This document shows, piece after piece, positions 59,304 to 59,649 of a stretch of DNA of 64,000 nt. The position numbers were made by a program, and so were the translations under genes. The stretch is taken from contig OZ220722.1 of the NCBI GenBank assembly GCA_965116815.1, positions 74,475-138,474 of the forward strand, in the 5' to 3' direction. The DNA comes from Candidatus Poribacteria bacterium. Lineage in GTDB: Bacteria; Poribacteria; WGA-4E; WGA-3G. Each line of letters opens with the position of its first letter. Position 1 is the first letter of the stretch. The notes under the pieces are model-generated. The model was not told where the DNA came from, searched no databases, and saw only the letters and a program-made list of their open reading frames with translations.

Positions 59304-59348
59304 AAAAAAAAACACCCTCACTGAAATCGTTGCTCAGTGATGGGCGTT
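59304..59348 (-). terminator. Attenuator terminator in the ileS leader
   Basis: AACGCCC-A-TCACTGA-loop-TCAGTGA-GGGTGTT followed by a T run. Confidence 0.85.
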
Positions 59349-59376
59349 GTAATAGAAATTTCTTATCTGCTCGTGA

Positions 59377-59478
59377 TTAACCCACCACAGCACGACGAAT
59401 AGCAATAATAATAATGGATATGGCGCGCAAACCCGTGACAGCCCGAAGGTTGTCTTGATGTAGGGCGTTGTCGCGCAC
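59377..59478 (-). CDS. Ile-rich leader peptide MRDNALHQDNLRAVTGLRAISIIIIAIRRAVVG
   Basis: GTG start after TAAGGA (alternative in-frame ATG at 59526); ATA TCC ATT ATT ATT ATT GCT ATT codon run. Confidence 0.8.
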   Translation of the reverse strand: MRDNALHQDNLRAVTGLRAISIIIIAIRRAVVG

Positions 59479-59620
59479 AAATTCCTTATCTTGCGATATC
59501 AGTGTGGTAAGCGATTTTCTGTCCATGTCTCATTTGAACGATGTGTGATGTCGTTGTAAATGCTACGCAAGCCTCATCAGACTTAGCGAAAACTTGTTTT
59601 AGAACGTGTACTTGCTAATT

Positions 59621-59649
59621 ATGATACCATATTCCCTGGAGGATGTCAA
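59621..59649 (-). promoter_or_regulatory. Sigma-70 promoter of the ileS leader
   Basis: TTGACA-N17-TATCAT with extended TG. Confidence 0.7.

Follow-up and report, generated by a model that had tools for sequence, protein, structure and literature searches.

The stretch of DNA analysed here, referred to as the window, comprises 64,000 nucleotides (nt) of a contig (OZ220722.1) from a Candidatus Poribacteria bacterium. On its minus strand it carries ileS, the gene of isoleucyl-tRNA synthetase (IleRS), preceded by a leader region with the parts of a putative Ile-responsive transcription attenuator, which is the subject of this work. The gene product has 1048 residues, scores 968.4 bits against the NCBIfam model TIGR00392 (cut-off 621.4), and contains the Pfam domains tRNA-synt_1, Anticodon_1, and DUF5915. 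All coordinates below are positions in the window, and the leader features, listed in the order of transcription with ileS itself at the end, are on the minus strand.

59649-59621, minus strand: promoter-like site, composed of TTGACA (59649-59644), a 17-nt spacer, and a TG-extended TATCAT (59626-59621), with 11 of 12 matches
59526-59377, minus strand: leader open reading frame (ORF), ATG at 59526, 49 codons, stop codon TAA at 59379-59377
59513-59503, minus strand: segment 1 (CGCUUACCACA), codons 5-8 of the leader ORF, candidate anti-antiterminator pairing with segment 2
59421-59398, minus strand: regulatory codon run, codons 36-43, ATA TCC ATT ATT ATT ATT GCT ATT, encoding ISIIIIAI
59388-59380, minus strand: segment 2 (GUGGUGGGU), the last three sense codons GUG GUG GGU with UAA directly after, predicted 5′ strand of the antiterminator
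59376-59364, minus strand: post-stop segment (UCACGAGCAGAUA), which can fold with segment 2 into a local hairpin (-9.5 kcal/mol) and is a second candidate for its sequestration
59345-59337, minus strand: segment 3 (GCCCAUCAC), terminator 5′ arm and also predicted 3′ strand of the antiterminator
59348-59304, minus strand: intrinsic terminator, a hairpin at 59348-59311 and nine T at 59312-59304
59183-56037, minus strand: ileS, ATG at 59183

The leader ORF starts about 87 nt downstream of the promoter-like site and translates into MDRKSLTTLISQDKEFVRDNALHQDNLRAVTGLRAISIIIIAIRRAVVG, the terminal part of which, directly before the stop, reads RAISIIIIAIRRAVVG. Six of the eight codons in the ISIIIIAI run specify Ile. 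The terminator hairpin has 15 pairs with one bulged A and a folding energy of -19.5 kcal/mol; it begins 31 bases past segment 2, and its T run ends 120 nt upstream of the ileS start codon. The upstream neighbour gene (59839-62247) is divergent from ileS, and the terminator is therefore not the end of another minus-strand gene. Three promoter-like sites are found in the 1.2 kb scanned, against a mean of 1.8 in shuffled sequences, and the alignment shows that the one listed above is kept in relatives of the same genus.

An earlier sequence-only reading of this region, made by a model, had proposed a promoter, an Ile-rich ORF, and a terminator about 120 nt before ileS, all of which are found at the places it gave on the minus strand. 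The leader ORF that it described as short is present and contains ISIIIIAI, but with 49 codons it is not very short. The further proposal that the last leader codons can pair with the terminator 5′ arm is borne out by the duplex GUGGUGGGU:GCCCAUCAC, which has nine pairs including G-U pairs.

The combination of an Ile run and a terminator is exceptional in the genome. A whole-genome scan yielded 941 sites with a hairpin and a T run, and 899 short ORFs that end beside one of them and precede a long ORF. The ileS leader is the sole one of these 899 with at least five Ile in eight codons, the frequency of Ile in the long ORFs of the genome being 62.6 per 1000 codons. Three other short ORFs have six or seven identical residues, in runs of Val, Asp, and Gly. 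The Val-rich one (7 of 8 codons) was considered as a second attenuator and rejected, as it is an alternative frame of the Gly-rich C-terminus of an ordinary gene.

Conservation of the Ile Run

IleS was found in all 41 close relatives and, more widely in the phylum, in 167 of 176 genomes. From these, 72 non-duplicate ileS upstream regions (loci L001-L030, L033, L035, and L038-L077) representing 11 families were compared, and Ile codons were counted in whichever ORF crosses or adjoins the conserved GRUGGUGGGC segment. A terminator with GCCCA in its 5′ arm is found at 68 of the 72 loci by an automatic criterion. The misses are L022, whose contig is short and carries an inserted repeat, L038 and L039, with the promoter directly before ileS, and L056, which has the Ile ORF though it failed the automatic terminator criterion. 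With respect to the leader ORF, the loci are distributed as follows.

At least four Ile in eight codons: 50 of 72 loci
RNA core and ORF present, with just one to three Ile in the best eight-codon window: 18 of 72 loci (f5, all; f8, all; f2/g2; f4/g7-g8; L040; L042; L057)
Ile-rich frame without an ATG, GTG, or TTG start: 1 of 72 loci (L025)
No leader: 3 of 72 loci (L022, L038, L039)

The loci with at least four Ile include 23 of the 24 in the genus of the window and 13 of the 14 in the largest sister genus, and also members of f3, f2/g5, f4/g4, f6, f10, and f11. The comparison across Poribacteria that the sequence-only reading had recommended thus finds the Ile run in frame in nearly all close relatives as well as in a majority of the sampled loci phylum-wide. 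A second form of IleS, 35-41% identical to that of the window and scoring 694 bits against the ileS model, is preceded by at least four Ile in eight codons at 6 of 6 loci, so that the run stands before both IleS forms known in the phylum sample.

The number of ATT codons in the run differs by whole codons between relatives, and outside the family of the window the leaders mix ATT, ATC, and ATA. The latter observation argues that what is conserved is the amino-acid meaning and not an AUU repeat. The remainder of the peptide behaves differently in its two parts. The N-terminal two thirds vary freely, the context of the start included (MDRK... versus MFY...), while the last 15 residues are almost invariant within the family; this invariant part coincides with the RNA pairing segments.

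As a separate observation, one contig assembled from an RNA library lacks three bases at position 59404, which corresponds to one ATT fewer. This is an in-frame strain variant of the kind also seen among the genomes.

Reading Frame of the Leader

Since a run of ATT codons encodes Leu (TTA) when read in the +1 frame and Tyr when read in the +2 frame, it is important to establish which frame is likely to be translated. We have examined this at 38 ileS loci of the window's family. The Ile frame has its stop codon exactly at the end of segment 2 at all 38 loci, and at 36 of them it forms an ATG-started ORF of at least 36 codons, the two exceptions being L005, which is cut by the 800-nt extraction, and L054, which starts with TTG. 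An ATG is found at only 4 of the 38 loci in the +1 frame and likewise at 4 in the +2 frame. The +1 stop ranges from +7 to +112 and is mostly located within the terminator 5′ arm. Changes of ATT to ATG in L006 and L013 yield a TGA in the +1 frame, and a deletion of 18 nt in L030 is in frame.

We have also considered the alternative that the +1 frame (TTA TTA TTA TTG CTA, encoding Leu) is translated, either alone or together with the Ile frame, which would make Leu, or several of the branched-chain amino acids, the signal sensed by the element. In the window this frame encodes PLLLLLF and is open over 54 codons; it is open in many relatives too, and at 3 of the 6 second-form loci it ends right at segment 2. 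Of these six loci, four have a start codon in the Leu frame, none of them with a Shine-Dalgarno match. The Ile frame spans segment 2 at five of the loci, and in four of these its start is preceded by such a match; at the sixth locus, L075, the Ile ORF ends before segment 2. In the second-form kind of locus found by the pattern scan described below, the length of the Leu frame ranges from 14 to 55 codons. Besides the scarcity of ATG codons and the TGA codons of L006 and L013, the usual position of the +1 stop speaks against its use, because a ribosome terminating inside the terminator 5′ arm would block the terminator at any amino-acid supply. Furthermore, the true leuS and leuA leaders described below use mixed Leu codons in the register of the window's Ile frame, and the gene regulated here is ileS. 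On these grounds, translation of the +1 frame is the least probable of the alternatives treated in this work, and we regard it as most unlikely.

Alternative Pairings of the Leader RNA

The attenuator reading requires that segment 3 can pair both with segment 2, forming an antiterminator, and within the terminator hairpin. Both pairings were evaluated on a MAFFT alignment of 51 distinct leader sequences from all families, which was not fitted to any structure. The antiterminator was tested as GUGGUGGG with CCCAUCAC. In the alignment, 87.1% of its cells are paired, compared with 31-57% when the partner is slid, and 5 of its 11 pairs show changes on both sides (23 cells). For the terminator, 86.4% of the cells are paired, compared with 36-55% for the slid partner, and 7 of 12 pairs show double changes (38 cells). 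None of 500 shuffles reached the covariation score in either case; the sequences being related, the shuffle counts overstate the significance, and more weight is due to the slid controls and the double changes. One such change is seen at the ninth antiterminator pair, which is G-C in the window's family and A-U elsewhere.

The minimum-energy fold of the full-length leader has an energy of -86 kcal/mol (z -2.18), and in it segment 1 is paired with segment 2. This is compatible with segment 1 acting as an anti-antiterminator. A consensus calculation with RNAalifold on 28 sequences of the family returns the terminator and two small local hairpins only. The covariation and folding checks that the sequence-only reading had called for come out in favour of the proposed antiterminator, in terms of both the compensatory changes at 5 of 11 pairs and the 0 of 500 shuffles given above.

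The effect of a ribosome on these pairings was modelled by folding a transcript that ends just past segment 3, with segment 4 (the terminator 3′ arm) not yet made, and by masking the 30 nt covered by the ribosome. When the A site is placed on the Ile codons at 59415-59406, nine pairs form between segments 2 and 3. This pairing is absent when the A site is moved to the last Ile codon (59400) or to the stop codon, and in the latter case segment 2 is wholly masked. The masked folds thus agree with the earlier proposal that a ribosome stalled on the Ile codons would free the antiterminator and one at the stop codon would mask it, as does the position of the stop codon, which adjoins segment 2 at all 38 family loci. 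Once the leader is complete, the terminator (-19.5 kcal/mol) is favoured over the antiterminator hairpin (-14.5 kcal/mol); since the terminator wins energetically, the choice between the two would be kinetic, as in textbook attenuators.

Probable Dependence of ileS on Read-Through

The distance between the T run and the ileS start codon is 13 nt in L014, 33 nt in L009, and 45 nt in L015, and amounts to 58, 60, and 64 nt in further relatives. Such short intervals leave no space for a separate promoter, which suggests that ileS depends on transcription through the terminator. A single ileS was found in the genome with the query used here, other matches being at most 28% identical. In two genomes of a sister genus (L038 and L039), ileS follows the same promoter directly, with neither leader ORF nor terminator between them. 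A search of these genomes with the covariance model described in the next section gave no match in one and a weak match in the other (expectation value, E, 0.008). These two loci are a natural loss of the predicted attenuator.

Here it is appropriate to weigh the possibility that the hairpin is a constitutive partial terminator that dampens ileS by a fixed amount, or that it marks the end of an independent small transcript, the ORF encoding a small protein or being untranslated. The hairpin is indeed strong (-19.5 kcal/mol with nine T), and the ORF is long for a leader, with its last 15 residues nearly invariant in the family. RNA data bear on this question to a minor extent. Runs that share sequence words with the stretch are mostly labelled as sponge or marine metagenomes, and 0.40 of the sampled words are present in one sponge metatranscriptome. 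Contigs from it match without error over 59442-59562, in the leader, and over 59131-59296 together with much of ileS (58638-59296). Among the contigs listed, none spans 59304-59391; this separate coverage of leader and ileS could be taken in favour of a fixed terminator, albeit weakly, as assembled contigs cannot show ends and speak neither for nor against termination, and DNA contamination of the RNA library is possible.

A small protein or a fixed terminator does not account well for the other observations. The N-terminal two thirds of the peptide vary freely and its invariant part coincides with the RNA pairing segments, and searches of the leader peptide against Pfam and NCBIfam at E ≤10 gave no family match. 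The antiterminator pairing covaries, which would be needless for a fixed terminator. In the relatives there is no room for a promoter of ileS's own, and in L038 and L039 the ORF and the terminator are missing together, with the same promoter retained before ileS. We therefore judge a constitutive terminator to be very improbable, and return to the attenuator in the following.

Copies of the Element before Other Genes

A covariance model was built from the 51 ileS leaders and used to search 151 sampled genomes of the phylum, 150 of which contain matches with E ≤0.01, mostly 2-7 per genome. In the genome of the window, the ileS leader itself scores 115.5 bits. A second copy, L079 (G000:C1:4913488-4913630, minus strand; region 4911988-4915130), scores 66.7 bits, and a third, L080 (G000:C1:1549840-1549974, plus strand; region 1548340-1551474), scores 25.3 bits with E 0.0066. 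A fourth match, L081 (E 0.1), was rejected, having neither a leader ORF nor a plausible downstream gene. Extra copies were further examined in five other genomes, in 19 further regions, and in 44 stretches that match the exact pattern, the downstream genes being named by NCBIfam. Apart from ileS, the leaders are followed by these genes.

leuS (L112, L114, L119, L117, L141): Leu-rich leaders, e.g., LNLTSLRLRLALILLRVVGG
leuA (L166): Leu-rich leader
tyrS (L097, L111, L115, L118, L131, L165, L167): Tyr-containing leaders, up to YHYYYYY
DAHP synthase, two types (L080, L098, L099, L106, L107, L108, L163, L164): Tyr/Phe-rich leaders; L113 is ambiguous
metS (L110): leader with IIMIFMMVE
citramalate synthase, first step of one route to Ile (L149): leader with ELISIISIRIA

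The leader of the third copy in the window's genome, L080, ends with LYLYVYFYFYGNERW before its stop codon. The gene that it precedes, at a distance of 188 nt, encodes a DAHP synthase (NF006421, 477.6 bits), and this copy probably attenuates aromatic amino-acid synthesis in response to Tyr/Phe. The leuS and leuA leaders use mixed Leu codons, and the register of these codons is that of the window's Ile frame. That the codon run varies with the gene while the RNA core is constant argues that the sensor is the translating ribosome, and we consider this the strongest single argument for the attenuator.

The exact-pattern scan covered 185,579 species and returned 44 stretches, 32 of them before ileS, three before tyrS, two before DAHP synthase, and one before leuS. 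Of the other six, three were named by NCBIfam as citramalate synthase, leuA, and homoserine dehydrogenase, and three were not assigned. By title, 41 of the stretches belong to Candidatus Poribacteria, two to an "uncultured bacterium", and one to Acidobacteriota. This last, L170, comes from a metagenome-assembled genome, where at 6301-6383 on the minus strand a Thr-rich leader (MSNAATTIRMTTASAMWMTTTRRRTVGRSAGVAPT) and the core GGUGGGC/GCCCACCAUC are followed by a homoserine dehydrogenase gene. Convergence, transfer, and mis-binning are all possible explanations of its occurrence outside the Poribacteria.

The second copy in the window's genome, L079, has its own promoter and a 37-codon ORF (MFYFSLTTLIHENCRCTFIYLGVVLIGTSMCRVGVGL), followed by the gene of a secreted protein with CBM9-like and DUF5916 domains. 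At least 15 genomes (L082-L096) of the genus keep a copy of this type, with the leader MFYLSSITLMHKNCLCTFIGLGVVLIGISMCRAVVGE and variants thereof.

The constancy of the core raises the question of whether the element could instead be an RNA switch for a signal other than the ribosome, such as uncharged tRNA bound in a T-box-like manner by the UGGU of segment 2, a protein, or a small molecule, the Ile codons then being incidental. The core GRUGGUGGGC...GCCCAUCAYC is far better conserved than the peptide, it is kept with few Ile codons at 18 of 72 loci, and one copy stands before a gene unrelated to amino acids, all of which would fit such a switch. However, no T-box or other Rfam family was matched, either in the window at 58900-60000 with E ≤10, where leader families were likewise without a match, or at the gathering score in the window and ten related loci. 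A conserved domain resembling Stem I is not seen upstream, the region from segment 1 to the codon run varying freely, and start and stop codons are conserved in a single frame. Moreover, the composition of the ORF follows the downstream gene (Ile, Leu, Tyr, Met, and Thr) on a constant core, which fits a ribosome as the sensor and not a single ligand. We consequently assign a very low probability to an RNA switch of this kind, comparable to that of the constitutive terminator.

The distribution of the copies leads us to lean, with some reservation, toward a more general reading, according to which one duplicated attenuator cassette would be the general sensor of charged tRNA in Poribacteria, in place of T-boxes. 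Its scaffold would consist of the anti-antiterminator, the GRUGGUGGGC segment, and the GCCCAUCAYC terminator, and its specificity would be reset by exchange of the codon run. The cassette would have spread to at least ileS, leuS, tyrS, metS, DAHP synthase, citramalate synthase, and leuA. The DUF5916/CBM9 gene would be a case of co-option, in which the signal reported may not be a single amino acid.

Proposed Mechanism

On the basis of the above, it is very probable that the element is a ribosome-mediated, Ile-responsive transcription attenuator of ileS. From the sequence we infer leader translation, ribosome stalling, termination, and read-through, and likewise the response to Ile limitation. 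In the mechanism that we propose, transcription would start near 59613 and the 49-codon leader ORF would be translated. When Ile-tRNA is plentiful, the ribosome would reach the UAA codon at 59379-59377 and cover segment 2, upon which the terminator hairpin would form and most transcripts would end at 59312-59304. When Ile-tRNA is scarce, the ribosome would stall at the Ile codons at 59421-59398 and leave segment 2 free. The latter would then pair with the terminator 5′ arm before the 3′ arm is made, allowing the polymerase to continue into ileS.

Several observations weigh against this interpretation. As to translation of the leader, the Shine-Dalgarno context of its ATG is poor, consisting of GAGA one base upstream, while the 3′ end of the 16S rRNA has the canonical CCUCC. 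The 49 codons exceed the textbook length of a leader. In the last 11 codons of 31 family leaders, the three codon positions have 3, 5, and 6 variable columns, which is a weak coding signal, and the open +1 frame discussed above belongs here too. With regard to the RNA, the pairing of segment 1 with segment 2 is kept in 96.0% of cells in 28 family sequences, and that of the post-stop hairpin with segment 2 in 98.2%, with zero pairs changed on both sides in each case. The truncated fold favours the antiterminator even without a ribosome, so that thermodynamics alone does not set the default state. In the comparative data, the difficulties are the 18 ileS loci with few Ile codons and L025 with its lack of a start codon, the L079-type leaders before the DUF5916/CBM9 gene, in which no amino acid is dominant or evident as the cognate one, and a match that precedes hisS (L126). 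This match was not counted as a member, because it has no His run and overlaps a match on the opposite strand.

If correct, the proposal explains, in a form open to test, how an essential gene is regulated in a phylum known from metagenomes alone, and suggests that synthetase genes in this phylum are controlled by ribosome-sensing leaders rather than by T-boxes. The element would be a natural example of a modular attenuator that is re-targeted through codon replacement, which bears on how attenuators spread within genomes and could offer compact parts for engineered amino-acid sensors. For annotation, it serves as a warning that ORFs of 30-50 codons of this type would be leaders and not hypothetical proteins.

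Other Features of the Region

A short repeat (GTTTTCAGTTATCGGTTATCGGTTTTCAGTT) at 59263-59300 on the minus strand, between the terminator and ileS, is dispersed through the genome, with 86 occurrences of its 12-letter core compared with about 0.7 expected. In four RNA-library runs it is covered by contigs of very high depth with unrelated sequence on either side, and related copies in both orientations are found before ileS in relatives. The repeat could be a REP-like (repetitive extragenic palindromic) element or a binding site. A different insertion is seen in L005, where about 600 nt composed of three tandem copies of a unit of about 200 nt (with tgtaggagggaactccgattcccgac) lie between the attenuator and ileS; the unit is also present at this place, as a single copy or in fragments, in L007, L008, L006, and L010.

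Elsewhere in the window, the start of a ribosomal RNA operon (43818-46547) is found, consisting of these genes.

44998-46547, minus strand: 16S rRNA gene, whose 3′ end holds the canonical CCUCC anti-Shine-Dalgarno sequence referred to above
43818-43894, minus strand: tRNA-Ile (GAT), following the 16S rRNA gene

Comparison with Known Systems

The mechanism as such would not surprise a specialist, and what the present analysis adds is the conservation throughout the phylum and the shared, re-targeted core. In the excerpts of the literature retrieved on attenuation, leader peptides, and T-boxes in Poribacteria, nothing relevant was found, the leader-peptide papers being concerned with ribosomally synthesized and post-translationally modified peptide natural products; those retrieved on ileS leader peptides and attenuators likewise contain nothing on this element. 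The statement of the sequence-only reading that it knew of no such description for ileS in this lineage is in line with these excerpts, which included no paper on it in Poribacteria. An article by Lopatovskaya et al. from 2010 is said to treat the attenuation of aminoacyl-tRNA genes, and may already list ileS attenuators in other phyla.

Control of ileS by other means is documented. According to the consulted parts of the comparative study of Seliverstov et al. (2005, PMC1262725), ileS in Actinobacteria is preceded by T-boxes and not by leader peptides. The ileS T-boxes of Actinobacteria and Firmicutes resemble the present system, as far as these sources go, in the gene concerned, in the increase of IleRS when tRNA-Ile is uncharged, and in the output, which is an antiterminator competing with a terminator. 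They differ in that the sensor is a tRNA-binding RNA and not the ribosome, the window having no T-box match in Rfam. The same parts of that study describe classical attenuators of trpS and leuS in Streptomyces, which were predicted by comparative genomics, as well as a classical attenuator for pheST in gamma-proteobacteria. The Streptomyces cases are similar to ours in being predicted by comparison and in concerning synthetase genes outside the Proteobacteria; they belong to another lineage, and the consulted parts report no core shared between them.

Leader peptides before synthetase genes have also been described in other lineages. In the sections consulted, a His leader is noted for hisS paralogues in bacilli (PMC2965389), and Deinococcus deserti is reported to have 14 leader peptides that belong to synthetase and amino-acid genes (2014, PMC4007540). 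The latter parallel the Poribacteria leaders as short ORFs that are rich in the cognate residue and stand before synthetase and biosynthesis genes of one organism, but the peptides are very short, the transcripts are leaderless, and a shared RNA core is not described in those sections. For ileS itself, ribosome profiling of Caulobacter crescentus by Schrader et al. (2014, PMC4117421) includes an "ileS leader CDS (CCNA_03934)". In the portion of that article consulted, it is merely named as a negative control, in an unrelated phylum; being a small translated ORF upstream of ileS, it indicates that ileS leader ORFs exist elsewhere.

A close counterpart in architecture is pheST of Escherichia coli and other gamma-proteobacteria with its leader pheM, where a short ORF with many cognate codons, alternative hairpins, and an intrinsic terminator likewise precede a synthetase gene. 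The pheM leader is far shorter than the 49 codons of the window. The two systems concern different amino acids, genes, and phyla, they have no sequence similarity, and, unlike that of pheST, the core found in the window is common to the leaders of several genes.

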